A stretch of 64,000 bases of DNA from a virus. The notes beneath the pieces were generated by a model. That model saw only the letters and a list, made by a program, of their open reading frames with translations, had not been told where the DNA came from and searched no databases. This document shows, piece by piece, positions 11,611-63,900 of the stretch (positions are counted from its first letter, which is position 1; every line of letters begins with the position of its first letter). The position numbers and the translations under genes were made by a program. The stretch spans positions 74 to 64,073 of IMG/VR virus record IMGVR_UViG_3300032431_000008. One strand, written 5' to 3'.

Positions 11611-12267
11611 ATGTATATTGTAAATGATAGACTGGTCCGGTATAGCGTAGTTGTCGCCAAGATCATTCCGGCAAAGGGAAAGAAGCGGGAGTTGGTTGCG
11701 CAGATTCAGCAAAGCGCGCTCGACTCCTGGTTAAACGCGGCAAGTAAAGTCGTGCTCTTAAACAGGCCCGAGGAGATTCCGTATCTCAACGTAAAAGGTG
11801 CGATGTTTGAGGAAAAGTATGCGGATTCTCCTACGGTTATTTCAGCAATGGCCGTGCTGGGCGAGGAGTTGCCTGATAGTGGCTATGGTGTTCTGGTTGA
11901 GGACAGGGTTATCTTGGAACCAAAGGGCGCGCACGTTATGAACAACGTCAGGCTTGAGGCGCAACTGAGCAAGGCGTGGGTTGCCGTGGCGGACGTAGAT
12001 GTTGAGGACTTGGACGGCACTTTGCACGGGACAGGCGGGGCGGTGTTCTGGATCAGCAAGACAGTGGCCCGCTACCTCAAGGAGAGTTGCAAGAATCCGC
12101 CGCTACTGGAAAACTATCCGGTGTGGGCGTCGTGGTTGCAGGATGAGATTAAGGCCAAGGTGTTTGGGCATAGATACTTTGACGCCAGCCAGCATAACTT
12201 GGCCAAGGTAGTTGTGGTTAAGGGATTCGATGTGGTCGAGCTTACCATGCCATTTACCAAGCACTAA
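11611..12267 (+). CDS. Possible degenerate glycosyltransferase-like protein
   Basis: QQSALDSW...VVLLN pattern; within the GT cluster; no clear DxD. Confidence 0.35.
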   Translation: MYIVNDRLVRYSVVVAKIIPAKGKKRELVAQIQQSALDSWLNAASKVVLLNRPEEIPYLNVKGAMFEEKYADSPTVISAMAVLGEELPDSGYGVLVEDRVILEPKGAHVMNNVRLEAQLSKAWVAVADVDVEDLDGTLHGTGGAVFWISKTVARYLKESCKNPPLLENYPVWASWLQDEIKAKVFGHRYFDASQHNLAKVVVVKGFDVVELTMPFTKH

Positions 12268-12268
12268 A

Positions 12269-13015
12269 ATGAGAACCGATATTCTACTTGTAACCTACCG
12301 GAAAGACTATGATTGGGCGGTGCTTTGTTTGCGCTCCATTGAGAAGTTCGCGTTTGGATTTGGGGGCGTAACATTGGCGTGTCCGGTGGACGACGAAGCA
12401 ATCTTCGTGGCATTGGCAGCGAAGCATAGCCGGTCCGACCTGCCAATTCTGGTGAGGAGCTATATTCCAAAGAAGGGGTATGAGTTCAATCATCATCAGG
12501 TAATGAAGTGCTACTCCGATGTGCTGTGTCCAAAGGCTGACTACGTGCTGCATATTGATTCGGACTGCATCTTTACGGACTTGGTGGCCCCGAATGACTA
12601 CTTCAAGGACGAGAAGCCATACCTGTTAATGCGGATGTATCAGCATAGCGAGCCGTGGTATATCTGGCGGAAGCCAACTAGCCTGGCGCTGGGGGTGGCG
12701 TGTAACTATGAGACTATGGTAAGGCACCCTGCCGTTCATCCCGTGGCGACATATCGGGACTTGCGCGGATACATGGAGACGCTGCACGGCATACCCTTTA
12801 GTGAGTGGGTGCTTAAGCAGTCGGGGAATTACCCGGCCTGTCACTTTTCGGAGTTCAACACGCTTGGCAGTTACGTCCTGATTGCCTGTGCGGAGCGATA
12901 CGAAGTGATTGACACCGACAAGGTAGAGCAACCGCCAAGTAATTTGGTCCAAGGGTGGAGTTGGGGCGGGGCGGACAAAGCAAAGCAAGACTATGAAAAA
13001 ATCCTCTCGCGGTAA
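12269..13015 (+). CDS. Glycosyltransferase-like protein (DUF6492-like)
   Basis: ILLVTYRKD...LRSIEKF, QVMK, YVLHIDSDCIF, FSEFNTLG. Confidence 0.7.
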   Translation: MRTDILLVTYRKDYDWAVLCLRSIEKFAFGFGGVTLACPVDDEAIFVALAAKHSRSDLPILVRSYIPKKGYEFNHHQVMKCYSDVLCPKADYVLHIDSDCIFTDLVAPNDYFKDEKPYLLMRMYQHSEPWYIWRKPTSLALGVACNYETMVRHPAVHPVATYRDLRGYMETLHGIPFSEWVLKQSGNYPACHFSEFNTLGSYVLIACAERYEVIDTDKVEQPPSNLVQGWSWGGADKAKQDYEKILSR

Positions 13016-37953: not shown

Positions 37954-38236
37954 ACAATTGCATCAACTGACTGGTGATGTGACTGCACTAACCGGCAACG
38001 TGCGCGAATTGGTTGGCTACGTGGACGGCCTTTATGGAAACGCTACTGGACTCCAAGGCGATGTAACTGGATTGAGCGGAGACGCTAGCCAACTTTACGG
38101 CGACGTAACTAGACTGACTGGCGATGTAACGGGATTGAGGGGCAATGCGACCGGCTTCTTTGGCAACGTAGACGACTGCAAGTTATCGAGAAAAGACCGT
38201 TCCAACTGCATTAACATACAGGATCTAATCGCATGA
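37934..38236 (+). CDS. 7-residue-repeat (L.GDVTG) protein
   Basis: About 8 tandem heptads in the translation. Confidence 0.65.
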   Translation: MKRKLNKQLHQLTGDVTALTGNVRELVGYVDGLYGNATGLQGDVTGLSGDASQLYGDVTRLTGDVTGLRGNATGFFGNVDDCKLSRKDRSNCINIQDLIA

Positions 38237-39066
38237 GCAAAACTGATGTAAGCCATTTCTACCGGCTGTTACCCACGGGTAAAGTCGAGTCCGCCTACGG
38301 TGCTTCGATCAAGGAAGCACGGGCAGGCGGATTATTCGCCTCGGCAACCATGGCCCTTAAGATGGTGGCCAATGTCGGGTTGGACATTTGGATCAGAGCA
38401 AACCTGTTGGACGCGATGGTGAACAACCCGCGCAATCCTGCGATGGAAAGTATCGAGGACTACAAGCAACGCATAGATGAGCTAAGCGAGGTTAAACGCA
38501 CCAACGCTGCTGAGTTCGGCACGGCCCTACACAACGCCCTAGAGCACTACCCGCTGCCCTGCCAGGACGACAAGGTGGCCCTTCACTACGCAGCCTGCGT
38601 CCCTTGGTTAAAAGCCAACGTGGCAAGCGTGATTGGCAGTGAGCTTATGCTGGCAGATGAACAGATAGGCTTTGCGGGCAAGACGGACTTGGTGTTTTTC
38701 GACAATGCAGGGGTGCCCTTCATCGTGGACTTTAAGACTACCGGCTTTAAGAAAACCAAGACTGGCAAGTGGGCTAAGCCTGCGTTTTACCAGTCATGGG
38801 TAAGACAGTTGGCGTTCTACGCCCGGTCCTACCAGAAGAAGTACGGCGGGCCATTGCCAAGGGTTATCTCGCTAGCCATTAACTCGGGTGAGCCATGCGA
38901 GCCGGTTGCGCGGTTCTGGACCGTGGAAGAGCAGGAGCAGGGCATGAACGAGTTCCTTTGCGCGGCCTACCTGTATTCCTGCGACCGGGACCATTGGCCT
39001 GCGGGTCTGTGGGAGTTGAAGGAGCAACGAGGTGGGTCCGTGTCAGTGGACGTGACAATCGTTTAA
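38233..39066 (+). CDS. PD-(D/E)XK exonuclease
   Basis: GTALHNALE, FAGKTDL, IVDFKT, QLAFY. Confidence 0.9.
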   Translation: MSKTDVSHFYRLLPTGKVESAYGASIKEARAGGLFASATMALKMVANVGLDIWIRANLLDAMVNNPRNPAMESIEDYKQRIDELSEVKRTNAAEFGTALHNALEHYPLPCQDDKVALHYAACVPWLKANVASVIGSELMLADEQIGFAGKTDLVFFDNAGVPFIVDFKTTGFKKTKTGKWAKPAFYQSWVRQLAFYARSYQKKYGGPLPRVISLAINSGEPCEPVARFWTVEEQEQGMNEFLCAAYLYSCDRDHWPAGLWELKEQRGGSVSVDVTIV

Positions 39067-39071
39067 CCGCC

Positions 39072-39371
39072 GTGCCTGCCCCATCCCTTATCCCTGCGCT
39101 CAAGATTGAGCAACCCTATGACTCCGCTACGCGCTGGCTGATACCTAGCAAGAGCGAGGGCGGGGCTGCTTACTTGGTTGACCTAGCTGAAAATGAGGGG
39201 TGGGGTTCATGTCAATGTATGTGGTGCCAAACTTCCTACGCCCCGCTCTTAAAGAAGGGGGTGGTGCCTATCAGGACGTGCTCGCATATCACCGATGCGC
39301 GGAAGAAGTTCGCGCTGTGGGCAGTGAACGCCTTCGACAAGCAGGATAAGAATAATCGTGAGCAGGACTAG
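39072..39371 (+). CDS. SWIM-like zinc finger protein
   Basis: YLVDL...SCQCMWC...CSHI. Confidence 0.65.
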   Translation: MPAPSLIPALKIEQPYDSATRWLIPSKSEGGAAYLVDLAENEGWGSCQCMWCQTSYAPLLKKGVVPIRTCSHITDARKKFALWAVNAFDKQDKNNREQD

Positions 39372-39409
39372 ACAAGAATTTCTGTCAGTAACCTAAAACA
39401 AAACCAACA

Positions 39410-39616
39410 ATGAAAACCATTATCGACGGCTCTACGCTCCTCGTTCTCGTATTATTCCAAGTCACGCTTGCAATCTGCATGGTGACTGCATGGTGTGTTA
39501 ACTTCTTCAAGCTCACGCAATGTGACTTCCAAGCCCCGTATAAGGGCGAGGCTATCCACGCAGTGGGGATTATCCCGCCGTTCGCGTTGGTGACGGTATG
39601 GTTCAACGCAAAGTAA
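39410..39616 (+). CDS. Small membrane protein
   Basis: Two hydrophobic segments; CDFQAPYKGEAIH. Confidence 0.7.
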   Translation: MKTIIDGSTLLVLVLFQVTLAICMVTAWCVNFFKLTQCDFQAPYKGEAIHAVGIIPPFALVTVWFNAK

Positions 39617-39619
39617 GCC

Positions 39620-39677
39620 ATGAACCCAAACGAAAAACCTGCCGCTGAAATGGCTTCTCTGCATCGCCTGGTTAGCG
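39620..39677 (-). mobile_element. attC left half (R''-L''), truncated
   Basis: Minus strand CGCTAAC-CAGGC-GATGCAGA-GAAGCC; 54/56 identical to 39982-40037. Confidence 0.75.
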
Positions 39678-39940
39678 GGCGTGCTTTTATTTATTGGCTT
39701 TTTATCTACCAGAAATGGCCGATAAAGCCCCTAGCCAAGAATCTGTGGGCGCTTTGGTATGCGATTAAAGATTTGGCGTGCGCTCTCTGGAAACTGGCGG
39801 TGATACCGTTCGCACCCGTAGCTTGCGCGCTCGCCATGCTCGCCGACGCAAAGATTCGCGCACAGGTAATAGAGATGCACGCCAGCCGCGCAACGCCGCG
39901 TAAGACCGCCGACATTATCGGCACAATTTCATATCGCTAA
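39620..39940 (+). CDS. Cassette 1 ORF (hydrophobic), antisense to attC
   Basis: Stop TAA lies within CGCTAAC; N-terminus shared with 39982. Confidence 0.65.
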   Translation: MNPNEKPAAEMASLHRLVSGRAFIYWLFIYQKWPIKPLAKNLWALWYAIKDLACALWKLAVIPFAPVACALAMLADAKIRAQVIEMHASRATPRKTADIIGTISYR

Positions 39941-40039
39941 CAAAACAGATCAGAGAGCCAACCCCCAACCCTAGAATAACTATGAACCCAAACGAAAAAC
40001 CTGCCGCTCAAATGGCTTCTCTGCATCGCATGGTTAGGC
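39935..40039 (-). mobile_element. Integron attC site (105 bp)
   Basis: R'' GCCTAAC +5 + L'' GATGCAGA ... L' TCTGATC +6 + R' GTTAGCG; two extrahelical bases. Confidence 0.88.
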
Positions 40040-40326
40040 ACGGTGTATTTTCGGAATTGAAGTGTGATTGCCCGCATCGAAAGGACTGGCGAAATAATGC
40101 GGGCGGCGACATGTCCGACTGCACTCTGCACGACTCGGGAAATCTGCCGCCTTGCATACCGGAAATCTGCCCACTGTTTAACAGCGACGACCCCAAAGGC
40201 GATCACGACAATATGCGGACGGAAGAGGAAGTGGAGGGAACATGGCTTCCGCCTAACAATCGCAGTCAGCGAGCCGTGAACCCCGCTTCGACAAGCAAAA
40301 GCGACGAGCATACGGCTTCGCTGTAG
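39982..40326 (+). CDS. Cassette 2 ORF (Cys-rich), antisense to attC
   Basis: Starts in the loop of one attC and ends in the L box of the next. Confidence 0.6.
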   Translation: MNPNEKPAAQMASLHRMVRHGVFSELKCDCPHRKDWRNNAGGDMSDCTLHDSGNLPPCIPEICPLFNSDDPKGDHDNMRTEEEVEGTWLPPNNRSQRAVNPASTSKSDEHTASL

Positions 40327-40339
40327 TGCTTGGTTGGGC
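40251..40339 (-). mobile_element. Integron attC site (89 bp)
   Basis: R'' GCCCAAC +5 + L'' ACTACAGC-GAAGCCGT ... ACGGCTC-L' GCTGACT +6 + R' GTTAGGC. Confidence 0.85.
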
Positions 40340-40363
40340 TCCGTAATTCCGAAATAAAAAACC

Positions 40364-40678
40364 ATGACTACATACCAAATACGCAACGCCCAGCTCGACG
40401 GCATCTACATTGACTTCGTAGATGAACAAGTAGCCGCCCACTATTGGCGCGGAAATATCGAAAATTGCAGCGACACCGACTCCCGCAAGGGTGCCGTTAT
40501 GGGCCGCTACACCCGTGAAAGCGAAGCCGAGGCAGACCGCGCGCGCCTCGACTGGCTCGATGGAAACAGGAGTGCGGCGCTCTCAGCGAGACGATTCATC
40601 CGCGACGTTATCGACGACCACCGCAAGCTCAGGCTTAGCGAGTTCGTGCAGCTTTTGCCTCTGCCCAACAAGGAGTAG
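40364..40678 (+). CDS. Cassette 3 ORF
   Basis: Bounded by GTTGGGC (40333) and GCCCAAC (40663). Confidence 0.65.
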   Translation: MTTYQIRNAQLDGIYIDFVDEQVAAHYWRGNIENCSDTDSRKGAVMGRYTRESEAEADRARLDWLDGNRSAALSARRFIRDVIDDHRKLRLSEFVQLLPLPNKE

Positions 40679-40734
40679 CCGTAAATCTTTCCACCTATCC
40701 CGCGAAAAAGTCCACCGTCACCTGTTCTCACCCC

Positions 40735-41070
40735 ATGAAACGCACCCCCATTAAGAAAGTAAAAAGCAAGAGGGCCAAGGAATTGCGCGAGTATTCCAAG
40801 CTACGCGAAGCCTACCTTGCTGCCCACCCCCATTGCCAAGCGACGATACGGCTGAATGGGCTGAACGAGGCGGAGGTGATTGAGCGTCACGGGCATTATG
40901 GCACTGGCTTTATGGTGCCACTGGCCACGGAGATTCACCACGTAGGCAAGCGATACGGTTCCCGGTTAAACGATACGGCAAAGTGGCTGGCCGTGTGCCG
41001 GACCATGCACATAGCTATCGAGCAGGATAAGACCTGGGCTCGGACGAATGGCCTGCTTGACAACTACTGA
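40735..41070 (+). CDS. Small HNH-fold protein
   Basis: HPHCQ...ATEIHH...WLAVCRTMH. Confidence 0.7.
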   Translation: MKRTPIKKVKSKRAKELREYSKLREAYLAAHPHCQATIRLNGLNEAEVIERHGHYGTGFMVPLATEIHHVGKRYGSRLNDTAKWLAVCRTMHIAIEQDKTWARTNGLLDNY

Positions 41071-41096
41071 GCAGGGTAGCAGGTTCGAGGTGAACC

Positions 41097-41357
41097 ATGA
41101 AACAACAGCCTAGACCGACCCGGAAACAGTTTATGAAGCGCGTCCAAGTGGACATTGCAAAGCTTGAGCAGGACGCGGCGGTGCCCCGCATGATGGCAGA
41201 AGCTTTGTGCTGGCACTTTGAGCTTAGCTCCGACCGCATTGGCGAGATTGTAAATGCGTATCTTGGATGGATAGAAGCTGGCGGTAAGCCGGTGGAGCGG
41301 GTGAATGAACAAGACCTTCCAGTAATCCATGGAGTCGTATGCCCGCCGCTCGTTTAA
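41097..41357 (+). CDS. Hypothetical protein
   Basis: ORF track. Confidence 0.6.
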   Translation: MKQQPRPTRKQFMKRVQVDIAKLEQDAAVPRMMAEALCWHFELSSDRIGEIVNAYLGWIEAGGKPVERVNEQDLPVIHGVVCPPLV

Positions 41358-41777
41358 CCAGTGGCCAACTCGAAAAAGTCTTGTCCCGTAGTGGCTACGC
41401 TATTACAGGCGGCACTGTTGCCAAGCCATGCCTACCCCGTGAAGGTAGTAATACCGATCCGTTGCCCGAGTTGGAATGCTATCTTGACGGCGGGGCATTG
41501 GCAAAGGGCGAAGATAAAAAAGCAAGTGCAGGCCGCTTTCTTGTCAGGGTTAAAGTCTTTCGGAAGCGATTCATTGACCCCGATAACGTCAGCCTTAAAT
41601 ACGCAATTGACTGCCTACGTTACGGAAGCATTTTGCCGGATGATAGAGCAGAAGACATTAAGCTCGAAATCGAGGAGCAAATCAAAGTCAAAACCGACGC
41701 AGAAGAAAGAATTGAAATCGAAATCTACGGGCCTGATTCCGTGGAAGCCAAGCAAGCGAACCAAAGGTAAACCATGA
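41339..41777 (+). CDS. RusA-like Holliday junction resolvase spread over two overlapping frames
   Basis: Frame 41339: RKRFIDPDNVSLKYAIDCL...PDD; frame 41361: IPIRCPSWN...HWQRAKIKK. Confidence 0.7.
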
Positions 41778-43913: not shown

Positions 43914-43957
43914 AAAACAAAAAGCCCACCGTAGGGCGTCGAAGGCTACGGTGGGCT
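43914..43957 (-). terminator. Intrinsic terminator / attenuator upstream of 43864
   Basis: 12-bp stem AGCCCACCGTAG/CTACGGTGGGCT followed by a U-tract on the minus strand. Confidence 0.75.
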
Positions 43958-44449: not shown

Positions 44450-44494
44450 AGTGGTGGAAATTCTTCTGTGGTGATTACAGGTCAATCAAGTAAG

Positions 44495-44902
44495 TTACTT
44501 TTCGGTGGGCATGTTTATGGCGCTATATGCTATTTCAGCCGCTAGCCGGACTTCGCAGGCTTTCTCGTATTTGCGTTGTGCTTCCTCGTATTCTGTCCCG
44601 CTCATTGCCACCACCGAGCATCCTTCAATGACGGCATAGCACAGTTTGCATTCGAGATTGGCGGCATCAACGGCGTCCCGTAGTGCGAGAGTGTCCGGGG
44701 CGGGCACGTTGCTACCGAGGCGTTCCATCTTGGCGATGTATGCCTTAAGCGCGGGGATTCCGCTGGGCTCAATGAGGACGGTATCGGTTGCGTGGACTGG
44801 CAGGTGGTGGTTGGCCGTGATAATCAGGCCGTAGGTGTGGGGGCAGACGGATGCGTAGGCACCGTCGCCAAGGTGGATGGGTTCGGGGAGTGGCGCGTTC
44901 AT
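44495..44902 (-). CDS. Hypothetical protein
   Basis: HLGDGAYAS pattern. Confidence 0.65.
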   Translation of the reverse strand: MNAPLPEPIHLGDGAYASVCPHTYGLIITANHHLPVHATDTVLIEPSGIPALKAYIAKMERLGSNVPAPDTLALRDAVDAANLECKLCYAVIEGCSVVAMSGTEYEEAQRKYEKACEVRLAAEIAYSAINMPTEK

Positions 44903-45312: not shown

Positions 45313-45519
45313 GTTGGTTATTGCGTGGTGAAAGTTCGTCTGTGGTAATTGCGGGTCAACCAAGTAAGTTCTTTTTGGGAGTCTCAAGGAACGATTCTTG
45401 GCGGGATGCTTCCTTGGCCACGGCCTCGCTGCGCTCGGCAATCTCGGCCATGGTGGGTAGGCTTTGCTGTTCGGTGGAAGCGAGGTTGAAGTCGGCTGCA
45501 AATAGGTCGGGTTGGTTGT

Positions 45520-61257: not shown

Positions 61258-63900
61258 ATGACCAATGACCAAGTAAAGTTTATCCACTCGCTCTTGGAGC
61301 AAGGCAAGGAGAGCTGGGTAGATGCGGCCAACGCCATTCTCTACATATCCCAAATACCGGGGCAAGTGGCGCACTACGCGGAGGCCAAGATTATTGTGCG
61401 GGCGTTCCTGCAAAGGTTGCTGGACCATGACGACTACTTGCTGGCAGCTACGTTGCTGTGGGGGAATGTCCGGTTAAACACGCTTACCCAATATACGCAG
61501 GACGTGTTTCGGGCCATGCACGAGAACAACATGCTTTTGATCCAGGGTGGGGCATCGACGAGTAAGTGTCTAGGGCCGGACATTCCGGTGATGATGCACG
61601 ACGGATCAACCAAGAAGGCTAGGGACGTGGTGGTTGGCGACGTGCTCATGGGGGACGACTCCAATCCTCGGAATGTCCTGAGCACCACAAAAGGCAGGAG
61701 CAAGATGTATCGAATCACCCCTGAGCGTGGTGAATCGTGGATTTGCAATGACGAGCATATCCTGACAATGCGCGTGAATCAGGGCGACAAGTGGGCTGTG
61801 TTGGATATTCCCATTAAGGAATACATTGGATACCCGGAGTCGCGTAAGGCTGCGCTCAAGCAGTTTTCCGTTGGGGTGGAGTTTCCAGAGCAGCCGGTTC
61901 CCGAAGATCCATACATTTACGGTGTTCGGGTCGGCAACAATGAGCCTGGCGGGCAACTGATTCCTGAGTCCTACATGAAGAACAGCCGTGAGAATAGGTT
62001 TAGGCTTTTGGAGGGACTACTGGATTCTGATGGATACGTCGGCAAAACGAAAGCTACGGTCGCTATTAAAACCAAGTGGAAGTCACTTGCTGAGCAGATT
62101 GTTTGGCTGGCAAAGAGTCTAGGCTTTTACGCTAGATTCTCTGGTGACTATTCCTTGGTTTATATCAATTTTGACGAATGTAAATCAACTGCCAATGTTG
62201 GCATTGAAGTTGAGGGCATTGGGGAAGGTGAATACTGCGGGTTTAGCGTGGACGGGAATAGCCGATTCCTTTTGGGGGACTTCACCGTTACGCATAACAG
62301 CTACTCGATGGGAGCTTGGTTACTCCTTGACTGGATAAGAGATCCATATTTTACATCGGTCAAAATAGTCTCCAAGGACGAGAAGCATTTGAAGGGTAAT
62401 TTGTTTGGCCATATCTACTCCCTGTTCCAAGGCATGGCTATCCCGCTTACGGATAATGACGCGGAAGAAGTGGTATGGCGGGAGCACGATATGTTCCTTG
62501 GACTGAAAGCCGTGGGTAACATTGCCGGTTTGCAGGGGGAGGCACTTAAGCATTCGTCAAGTTCCTCGGGCGACTTGAAAGGGTATAAGCCTCAACCGCG
62601 CCGCAAAACGCCTCACCCAAAGTTCGGGAACATGTCTCGACTGCGGGTAGCGGTGGATGAGGCGCAATCGGCACCTGTGGGTATATTCCAAGATTTCATG
62701 TCCGTGCGAGGTTCCTTGGACGGGCTGGACTTGGTGAAGATCATTTGTGCCTACAATCCTACCAGCCTGAGCGATAGGGTGGTGAATGAGGCTGAACCTC
62801 TCCATGGCTGGATTGAGACCGACCTGGACACGCTGTATGAGTGGAAGAGCAAGAAGGGGTGGCGCGTGCTCCGGTTGGATGGCTCGCGGTCGGAAAACGT
62901 GGTAGCCAAGAGCAAGATATTCAGTGGCATCCAGACCTACGAAGGCTTTATAAGTTTCCTGCAAGGTGACGGTGCTGACAGTTCTCCCGACTACTTTACG
63001 TTCGGGCGTGGCTGGCCACCTCTCAAGGGTAGTGCCAACACGATTATCCCTGCTACTTGGTGCGTTGAGGCGCGGGGAGAAGCTGTGTGGTTGGAGAAGC
63101 CGATTATGGGGGCAAGCGTGGACCTTGCGTTCCAAGGAAGCGACACGGCGCAGATGACTATTTTTAAGTGGGGGCTGGCAAAGGGCTGGCGACGTGCCGA
63201 TGGGAAGTATGTCGAGTATGTTGACCGGACGAGCGCGGGGCGGAAGAAGCCAAGGCACGTACTGGAAGTTTACCAGATTATCCAGATGGAGAAGTCCTAC
63301 GATTCCATCCAGATGAGTGAGGAGATTACGGGTCGCTGTCAGATGTTGGGGATTTCACCGGATTGGACCGTCGTGGACAAGTCGGGTAGCGGCCTTGGCA
63401 CGTTCTCCCACCTTACGAAGTATTGGGGGAATATCATGGGGATTATGTGGGGCGATGGTGCTACGGATATGCTTGTCTTGGCGGAGGACCAAGAGGCCGC
63501 GTCGTCCCGGTTCCAAGGGATAATGTCGGAGATGTGGTTTGCTTTCCGTGAGTGGTTAAACCCCACGGTGGGGGCGATAATTATTAACCCCATGGTCCCA
63601 ACGTCGCCACTAAACGTGCAGTTGAGTTCACGCCGGTTTAGGTATGCGAAGAACGGGACGATGAAAGTTGAGAGCAAGGACGAGTATAAGCAACGGAACC
63701 AACGTAGCTGCGATGAAGCGGACAGCGTGATTCAGATTGTGCAGCTTATCCGCGCACGGGGGCATATTTTGCCTGGTATGATGGAACAGTCGGACTCCCG
63801 TTTCAGTAATCAGGAAACTGAGAAAGCTGGGCTGGAGACGGCTGACGTTGACGAATCACTTGCAATTGGCGGAGGGGGAGTCGAATACTTGGACCTATGA
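61258..63900 (+). CDS. terL: Terminase large subunit containing an intein
   Basis: Walker A GGASTSK|S, Walker B VAVDEAQ, nuclease region SVDLAF, VVDKSG, DEADS. Confidence 0.88.
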   Translation: MTNDQVKFIHSLLEQGKESWVDAANAILYISQIPGQVAHYAEAKIIVRAFLQRLLDHDDYLLAATLLWGNVRLNTLTQYTQDVFRAMHENNMLLIQGGASTSKCLGPDIPVMMHDGSTKKARDVVVGDVLMGDDSNPRNVLSTTKGRSKMYRITPERGESWICNDEHILTMRVNQGDKWAVLDIPIKEYIGYPESRKAALKQFSVGVEFPEQPVPEDPYIYGVRVGNNEPGGQLIPESYMKNSRENRFRLLEGLLDSDGYVGKTKATVAIKTKWKSLAEQIVWLAKSLGFYARFSGDYSLVYINFDECKSTANVGIEVEGIGEGEYCGFSVDGNSRFLLGDFTVTHNSYSMGAWLLLDWIRDPYFTSVKIVSKDEKHLKGNLFGHIYSLFQGMAIPLTDNDAEEVVWREHDMFLGLKAVGNIAGLQGEALKHSSSSSGDLKGYKPQPRRKTPHPKFGNMSRLRVAVDEAQSAPVGIFQDFMSVRGSLDGLDLVKIICAYNPTSLSDRVVNEAEPLHGWIETDLDTLYEWKSKKGWRVLRLDGSRSENVVAKSKIFSGIQTYEGFISFLQGDGADSSPDYFTFGRGWPPLKGSANTIIPATWCVEARGEAVWLEKPIMGASVDLAFQGSDTAQMTIFKWGLAKGWRRADGKYVEYVDRTSAGRKKPRHVLEVYQIIQMEKSYDSIQMSEEITGRCQMLGISPDWTVVDKSGSGLGTFSHLTKYWGNIMGIMWGDGATDMLVLAEDQEAASSRFQGIMSEMWFAFREWLNPTVGAIIINPMVPTSPLNVQLSSRRFRYAKNGTMKVESKDEYKQRNQRSCDEADSVIQIVQLIRARGHILPGMMEQSDSRFSNQETEKAGLETADVDESLAIGGGGVEYLDL
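61567..62298 (+). mobile_element. Intein (244 aa) with a degenerate LAGLIDADG domain
   Basis: Starts CLGPDIPV, block B WICNDEHIL, LLEGLLDSDG, ends VTHN followed by Ser. Confidence 0.95.

Follow-up and report, generated by a model that had tools for sequence, protein, structure and literature searches.

The 64,000-nucleotide stretch of DNA analyzed here (the window) covers positions 74 to 64,073, nearly the whole, of the IMG/VR virus record IMGVR_UViG_3300032431_000008 (64,108 bp; completeness estimate 93%). The same phage contig was obtained by three assembly pipelines from one freshwater metagenome. Between positions 39,601 and 40,690, this phage is likely to carry a reversed, integrase-less cluster of integron attC sites of the type found in Opitutaceae, in which small phage-type genes are coded on the bottom strand of the sites and the sites themselves supply coding sequence. 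The elements concerned, including three open reading frames (ORFs), are the following.

39601..39677, plus strand: site A, a degenerate attC (GTTCAAC ... GTTAGCG) whose loop and 3' arm form copy 1 of a 56-nucleotide repeat.
39620..39940, plus strand: ORF 39620, 106 amino acids, predicted all-helical and hydrophobic; ATG in the loop of site A, TAA in the left box of site B (CGCTAAC).
39936..40039, plus strand: site B, an attC read on the bottom strand; its 52-53-nucleotide loop holds the ATG of ORF 39982, and this loop together with the 3' arm makes up copy 2 of the repeat.
39982..40326, plus strand: ORF 39982, 114 amino acids, cysteine-rich; ATG in the loop of site B, stop inside site C.
40251..40339, plus strand: site C, the best-preserved attC (GCCTAAC ... 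GTTGGGC), read on the bottom strand; an 89-nucleotide, end-to-end bulged hairpin.
40364..40678, plus strand: ORF 40364, 104 amino acids, lying within the body of the third cassette and running antisense to the canonical polarity of cassettes.
40664..40690, plus strand: site D, a possible but doubtful half-site, read as a one-arm attC remnant (GCCCAAC AAGGAG TAGCCGTAAATC).

The two leftmost ORFs share their beginning. As the original prediction had noted, a direct repeat of 56 nucleotides (39620-39675 and 39982-40037; 54 of 56 positions identical) starts exactly at the ATGs of the adjacent ORFs 39620 and 39982. Only two copies occur genome-wide, where chance would give none. The products are identical at 17 of their first 18 residues and unrelated thereafter; both mismatches are non-synonymous, and there is no synonymous difference. 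By homology, the counterpart of the repeat in site C is the hairpin's loop plus 3' arm, and the sequence upstream of each copy resembles the 5' arm of that hairpin. Because the sites supply coding sequence where genes abut or overlap them, the repeat is best read as two closely related attC sites rather than as a duplicated gene start. Outside the phage, a search of a phage DNA database gave no DNA match and one of plasmids only chance-level matches, while a relaxed pattern of the 3' arm retrieved from IMG/VR three copies of one unrelated sequence and nothing else.

When one genome per species was scanned for the consensus of the 3' arm, four places emerged, one of them in a lake metagenome-assembled genome (MAG) of Opitutaceae. 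The contig concerned (65% GC, no similarity to the phage) holds seven hairpins of the form GCCTAAC...GTTAGGC, all in one orientation, 98-115 nucleotides long and spaced 0.3-0.9 kb apart; their consensus fold has 38 pairs, with compensatory changes in 18. From these attC sites we built our own covariance model, R1, and searched 81.9 kb of phage DNA (the window and three related loci) on both strands. Exactly two matches were returned, site C (27.1 bits, E=7.5e-4) and site B (21.1 bits, E=0.021, or 0.0025 for a search space of 10 kb), the E-values being rough; both are full length and on the plus strand. Switching the filters off gave the same picture, with site C reaching 7.0 bits on the minus strand and site A a non-significant 6.6 bits.

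What kind of element does R1 describe? The integron integrase IntI scored above the NCBIfam curated cut-off in 45 of the 101 sampled genomes of Opitutaceae, against none of 14 control genomes. On long contigs of two genomes, G098 and G006, R1 detects arrays immediately upstream of intI, each with a dozen to twenty sites, and copies of the 3' arm of site C, 85-96% identical, are found in several Opitutaceae genomes. Since R1, derived from bacterial sites, matches B and C, and since its other matches form arrays beside IntI, B and C are, judging from sequence and predicted structure, integron attC sites, in agreement with the original prediction. The host group is probably Opitutaceae (Verrucomicrobiota). 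The two sites lie 212 nucleotides apart, both on the plus strand, with no integrase, and thus form what IntegronFinder calls a cluster of attC sites lacking an integrase, or CALIN (two attC sites on a single strand, separated by less than 4 kb, integrase absent; PMC4889954). The phage does not qualify as a complete integron, as its record contains no integrase; attI was not searched for.

The bacterial loci deserve some remarks of their own. Those of G098 (C1:1294043-1306498) and G006 (C1:464656-473660) are apparently complete chromosomal integrons, with IntI and an attC array. A seven-attC array at the end of the Opitutaceae MAG contig JBILUB010000002.1 (10859-14290) has no visible integrase; it includes an overlapping pair of small minus-strand ORFs (12166-12616) that resembles a toxin-antitoxin pair by appearance only, no family search having been made, and at least one of its bottom-strand ORFs reads into an attC box as ...LPNV, as in the phage. 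A truncated recombinase at the start of contig C335 was considered as an IntI and rejected as XerD-like.

The polarity of the sites follows from the same arrays. In cassette arrays, transcription runs away from intI. In G098, intI lies on the plus strand with the array to its left and all R1 matches on the plus strand, and G006 is its mirror image: in both, R1 matches always fall on the strand opposite to cassette transcription. Similarly, in 28 of the 33 cassettes of three Opitutaceae arrays the dominant ORF, which mostly covers at least 95% of the body, runs opposite to the R1 strand. From this intI geometry and these opposite-strand ORFs, R1 models the bottom strand of attC. The Opitutaceae consensus fold has its unpaired bases on the 3' arm, the same side as the bulges of site C. 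Because B and C match R1 on the plus strand of the phage, that strand is the attC bottom strand, and the plus-strand ORFs are antisense to canonical cassettes, just as had been proposed. Every unit in the window is coded on the bottom strand and none has the canonical layout of a top-strand ORF followed by its own attC, R'' box first; on the phage side, the only canonical cassette is a 197-amino-acid ORF in a related contig, described below.

The four sites are unequally preserved. Compared with the R'' (RYYYAAC) and R' (GTTRRRY) consensus boxes, site C alone fits at both ends (GCCTAAC/GTTGGGC). It is also the only one of the seven RYYYAAC..GTTRRRY loci of the window that folds end to end (DNA fold of -19.6 kcal/mol, z=-2.05), with a single-base bulged T at each of element positions 67 and 74, on the plus-strand 3' arm. 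Site B has the boxes CGCTAAC, which is off at two positions, and GTTAGGC; its minimum free energy fold pairs CTAAC with GTTAG and GATCAGAGAGCCA with TGGCTTCTCTGCATC, as R and L stems around the loop. In site A, GTTCAAC fits and GTTAGCG does not. Site A is recognizable solely by its 96% identity to site B over 56 nucleotides and would be a decayed sister of B; its 7-bp stem AAGCCAT/ATGGCTT takes in the ATG of ORF 39620. Between site C and sites A and B the stem is kept by two pair changes, C-G to A-T and G-C to A-T, one of which creates the ATG. Site D resembles the 5' arm of site C as well as a solo arm in the related contig L013 (1466-1510) at the same position ahead of a conserved gene, and the similarity of a related contig to the window begins at 40663, near this site.

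Codon usage supports the plus-strand ORFs. We trained a codon model on 21 long genes of the phage; calibrated on 630 fragments of the same length, it put the true frame first in 96% of them. The plus-strand frame ranked first of six in four of four bodies (the three units and a neighboring ORF, 39410), with a good margin for ORF 39620 (0.32), a small one for ORF 39982 (0.13) and again a small one for ORF 40364. The minus-strand ORFs 39937..40404 and 39706..39924 scored below the plus frame in every comparison; together with the homologues of ORF 40364 (see below), this places the coding signal on the plus strand, as the original prediction assumed. The starts at 39620 and 39982 have an A/C-rich context and no Shine-Dalgarno sequence, like the phage's other genes.

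Which residues, then, would come from attC? ORF 39620 is called at full length in three public assemblies, and its only alternative starts before residue 61, M1 and M11, both lie within site A, which encodes residues 1-19. In ORF 39982, the R1 alignment of site B places the ATG within the loop, while the 3' arm encodes residues 11-19. The proposed position of the ATG inside an attC loop is thus upheld for ORF 39982; for ORF 39620 it holds by homology only, site A failing R1. ORF 39982 then reads as CCT AAC through the left box of site C and ends at a TAG (40324-40326) inside that site, so that its C-terminus does derive from the neighboring attC. If the crossover is canonical, between G and TT on the top strand and hence between GCCTAA and C on the plus strand, the last 23 residues and the stop lie beyond it. 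The last 12 residues of ORF 39982 are identical at 9 positions (75%) to the end of an otherwise unrelated ORF of contig L013 (561-836), and the two have only this attC-encoded tail in common. Attachment of shared attC-encoded termini to unrelated bodies is therefore seen in two pairs, ORFs 39620/39982 and 39982/L013:561-836; a degenerate form of the N-terminal pattern was absent from the viral, metagenome and genome collections searched. The peptides at issue are MNPNEKPAA... and ...STSKSDEHTASL; we infer that they are translated and merely tolerated.

ORF 40364, to judge from its relatives, is a real gene. A search of 1.84 billion representative proteins gave 13 homologues at E<=1e-3, aligned from residue 1, the best being 48% identical over its full length, while a word-level search of 5.8 billion proteins gave none. 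It ends in ...LPLPNKE*, across the GCCCAAC at 40664-40670, as the reading through a core site had required; its nearest homologue, however, ends in ...FVQLLPVPHL* with no attC nearby, and the box is in part the gene's own conserved C-terminus. In other contigs, the closest homologue lies directly upstream of a gene for 950 amino acids, with no R1 matches there; short contigs with further homologues offered no usable context. Because members of the family elsewhere lie on short contigs that have no attC matches, alongside small genes of the same orientation, the cargo of the third unit is best seen as a gene family that also exists outside attC contexts, not as a flipped bacterial cassette, and the inversion of cassettes put forward originally is not the most fitting description. 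One of three copies of the 950-amino-acid gene bears intein matches (Hint and homing endonuclease), as does its homologue in the window, an 880-amino-acid ORF (61258-63900; Hint and LAGLIDADG homing endonuclease at residues ~109-294). In the window, ORF 40364 sits within the attC cluster, 20 kb away from the latter gene.

The attC region belongs to a series of small plus-strand genes that lies between a PD-(D/E)XK exonuclease (38233-39066) and a RusA-like gene. Three neighbors set its limits.

39072..39371, plus strand: backbone gene, 99 amino acids, left edge of the variable slot; 71-90% nucleotide identity in the related loci L003, L011 and L013; no family in a Pfam search.
39410..39616, plus strand: ORF 39410, 68 amino acids, hydrophobic, outside the cassettes; its final codons (W F N A K stop) run into the left box of site A.
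40735..41070, plus strand: backbone gene, 111 amino acids, right edge of the slot; conserved in L003 and beginning at the end of L013; weak PHROG HNH matches.

The interval between the two backbone genes (39372-40734) is a hypervariable accessory-gene slot, with attC sites in some lineages only. Its small ORFs differ in every relative examined (L003:7263-7451, L011:3331-3498 and L013:551-1512). In a related phage of 66.7 kb (G001, locus L003), the slot holds one unrelated 62-amino-acid ORF, and R1 has no match in that phage. L013 (Ga0222708_1011788), a metagenome contig of 1,550 nucleotides, is 88% identical to the window in the gene left of the slot. Here the 3' half of site C stands at the end of an unrelated plus-strand ORF, and the 5' half is found 620 nucleotides further, directly before the 111-amino-acid gene. 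Between them lies the 197-amino-acid gene mentioned above (L013:860-1453, minus strand), in the canonical order R' box, ORF and attC and antisense to the phage operon; its product has a weak homologue within an Opitutaceae attC array (G374). The sites of L013 itself are half-sites or degenerate, with no significant R1 match.

Variation is also seen within the source sample, whose assembly graph branches at site C; the Logan contigs derive from run SRR5468153. In a low-depth contig, positions 40046-40246 are swapped for 180 other bases between B and C; the variant body differs in length by 21 nucleotides and so leaves the start encoded by B in frame with the tail encoded by C. Another contig has a 92% identical copy of the 3' part of the hairpin behind a different sequence. 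Cassette content thus differs both between related phages and within the source sample. The variant is bounded by positions 40045 and 40247, both slightly beyond the sites, a placement that fits homologous exchange between similar sites as well as it does IntI. Protein-based locus searches in IMG/VR with ORF 39620, ORF 39982 and the 111-amino-acid gene yielded nothing. Sequencing run X2 has no cover over 39738-40538, and absence from it was not used as evidence. In a first pass we had taken the repeat for an ordinary recombination scar and rejected attC, on the grounds of a z near 0 obtained with wrong bounds for A and B, the absence of an integrase and a strict motif scan that found C alone; contig L013 and the Opitutaceae array overturned this reading.

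We propose that a CALIN sits between two conserved early genes, with B and C well preserved, A a decayed sister of B and D perhaps a half-site. Its attC type is that of Opitutaceae chromosomal integrons. The attC bottom strand serves as the sense strand of the phage, and the units between the sites contain small phage-type genes oriented along the phage operon. ORFs 39620 and 39982 would owe their ATG and initial 18-19 codons to sites A and B, specifically to loop and 3' arm, and ORF 39982 would owe its last 23 codons and its stop to site C. Units would be moved either by a host IntI or by homologous exchange between similar sites. Recombination of the phage sites by a host integrase is suggested by the frequency of IntI in the host family and by the canonical L013 cassette with its homologue in an Opitutaceae array. 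One may speculate further that phages of integron-bearing bacteria keep a reversed, phage-adapted cassette system, with the bottom strand as sense strand, phage cargo and an exchange that swaps genes along with terminal peptides, although we find this improbable. Integron biology has yet to explain where cassettes come from, and if such a system existed, the presence of the ORF 40364 family inside a unit would be a snapshot of a gene gaining attC flanks.

Several observations weigh against the proposed cluster. No tyrosine recombinase of any kind was found in the phage record (PF00589 and TIGR02249 were searched across 64 kb of a record that is 93% complete), nor was IntI found in the Opitutaceae genome with the closest site, and the E-values of R1 are rough. 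Site A fails this model (E=8), its folding energy has a z of about 0, and folding yields merely a 13-bp stem, which falls short of an attC hairpin; site B makes a weak one, with a fold energy no better than that of shuffled sequences. Site D is unmatched by R1, and its box, overlapping the end of the conserved ORF 40364 gene, is largely explained by the conserved C-terminal end of that family. As A and B fold no better than shuffles and A and D fail R1, at most two sites may still be recombinogenic and the cluster may be largely fossil. On the protein side, no homologue of ORF 39620 or ORF 39982 was found among 5.8 billion proteins, the codon margins of ORFs 39982 and 40364 are small, and two gene callers start ORF 39982 at M44 (71 amino acids), against 114 amino acids for the JGI call. 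The in-frame variant in the source sample is a single 248-nucleotide unitig of depth 3 with a 30-nucleotide anchor.

Could the sites be attC and the attC-encoded termini nevertheless be artefacts of annotation? The real start of ORF 39982, and perhaps that of ORF 39620, would then lie downstream of the site, the frame across it would be open by chance, and the identity of the 56 nucleotides would be that of two sister attC sites at the DNA level, without bearing on the proteins. We find this somewhat unlikely, though several points speak for it. The M44 start represents two of the three public gene calls, the two non-synonymous differences between the repeat copies suggest a recent DNA-level duplication over selection for a peptide, and the corresponding bottom-strand frame is frequently open in the bacterial attC sites of this family. 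AF2 gave no confident fold for either protein (single-sequence pLDDT of 44 for ORF 39982 and 60 for ORF 39620, values that are uninformative). On the other hand, ORF 39620 has no in-frame ATG, GTG or TTG from M11 to V61, so its hydrophobic body needs a start in site A; the leader of M44 is G-rich, unlike the A/C-rich leaders of the phage's genes; and the alternative 180-nucleotide body keeps the frame from B-encoded start to C-encoded tail. A different view would take the minus-strand ORFs (39706-39924 and part of 39937-40404) as the real cassette genes and the plus-strand ORFs as their shadows. The minus-strand ORFs do span 85-100% of two cassette bodies, and theirs is the strand that carries both the coding sequence of 28 of 33 bacterial cassettes of the same attC type and the 197-amino-acid gene of L013. 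We nonetheless judge this very unlikely: the minus frames score below the plus frame in every body, the 155-amino-acid minus ORF would start in the neighboring cassette and cross two whole attC sites, the GC content by codon position of 39706-39924 is atypical for the phage, and the third body contains no minus ORF while its plus ORF has 13 homologues.

The elements themselves might instead be palindromic boundary repeats specific to the phage, comparable to the PeSL of T4 or to lambdoid linkers, which look like attC by chance and promote homologous shuffling. The lack of an integrase, the non-significant folds of A and B, the absence of any copy in IMG/VR, phage or plasmid databases and the variant boundaries just outside the sites, as homologous exchange predicts, all speak for this. 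Yet a model derived from bacterial sites only recognizes B and C over their full length and in a strand-specific way, the same model marks arrays beside IntI, and 85-96% identical copies of the 3' arm of C occur in several Opitutaceae genomes, which leaves the chance resemblance with very little probability. Finally, the shared N-terminus might be a peptide selected for targeting or interaction on different cargo, much as internal proteins of T4 bear a capsid-targeting sequence; in favor of this, the first base of the repeat is that of the ATG, and the bodies that follow are unrelated. We give this hardly any credence and dropped a capsid-targeting peptide, as these nucleotides have homologous counterparts in site C and in the attC sites of bacteria, where they form loop and arm; moreover, no other protein among the 5.8 billion has the peptide, its degenerate form is missing from the collections named above, and synonymous differences are nil.

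The remainder of the slot and window gave few other signals. ORF 39410 has a weak match to phrog_6006, and the slot ORFs had no other match in Pfam and PHROGs. A promoter and terminator scan of 38800-41400 stayed at chance level, and Rfam had no match within the window. Two intergenic segments (44451-44505 and 45325-45378) form a 55-nucleotide repeat, 84% identical, upstream of minus-strand genes and with TTGACC on the minus strand, which is probably a repeated promoter or operator. A short, GC-rich and near-perfect hairpin at 43924-43956 (GCCCACCGT...ACGGTGGGC) is matched weakly, on either strand, by the attC model; it has the look of a bidirectional terminator, where plus-strand genes give way to minus-strand genes, rather than of an attC.

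The tie between this cluster and the attC type of an IntI-rich family provides a host prediction for an uncultured phage. Units that vary from one related phage to another and inside a single lake sample imply turnover in nature, and where genes run against attC polarity and use attC as coding sequence, exchange between sites would alter both protein ends and gene content. Should the peptides be made, attC sites would be exchangeable coding modules, a role not described before.

Phage attC clusters are known but rare, and the role described for them so far is only that of possible vehicles for bacterial cassettes. In 10,705 phage genomes, 17 CALINs were reported, and IntI1 was found to recombine phage attC sites (Qi et al. 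2023, Front Microbiol, PMC9892861). Like those, the present cluster groups at least two attC sites on a single strand within a few kb, lacks an integrase and has small cassettes of no ascribed function. The portions of that study available to us make no mention of antisense genes, of ORFs starting or ending in attC or of cassette differences between related phages; Opitutaceae do not figure there among the hosts, and the sites described here are partly decayed. As far as the literature accessible to us goes, neither bottom-strand genes with 18-23 end residues drawn from attC nor cassette differences between related phages have been described, and a reversed, coding use of attC sites appears to be new in print.

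Verrucomicrobia are listed as integron carriers (Cury et al. 2016, PMC4889954). The sedentary chromosomal integrons of Opitutaceae share with the phage the GCCTAAC...GTTAGGC boxes, the unpaired spacer, the bulges of the bottom-strand 3' arm, a variable loop and a cassette spacing of 0.3-0.9 kb. Their arrays, however, adjoin intI and use top-strand coding in 28 of 33 cassettes, while the phage cluster has no intI and bottom-strand coding in all units, and the loops of the phage sites have lost the conserved TGGCGCG...CGTGACA stem. In hyperplastic regions of T4-type phages, gene shuffling likewise goes along with short conserved sequences that mark where unrelated small genes start or border on one another; these sequences are phage promoters, stem-loops or a protease-cleaved peptide, unrelated to integrons. 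The phage sequence described here differs from the internal-protein and PeSL cassettes of T4 in being homologous to bacterial attC.

A precedent for coding across a recombination site comes from class 1 integrons, where short ORFs lie inside attC and translation through the site influences expression of the next gene (PMC8876359). The frames of ORF-11 and ORF-18 in attI1 span the crossover and take their stop from the neighboring cassette, so that the product varies with cassette order (PMC8876359). A reading frame across the crossover and a stop supplied by the neighboring unit are features shared with the phage. The class 1 integron ORFs, though, are all short top-strand leader peptides acting in translational coupling, whereas the predicted phage products are bottom-strand proteins of about 100 amino acids, 18-23 residues of which would come from attC.

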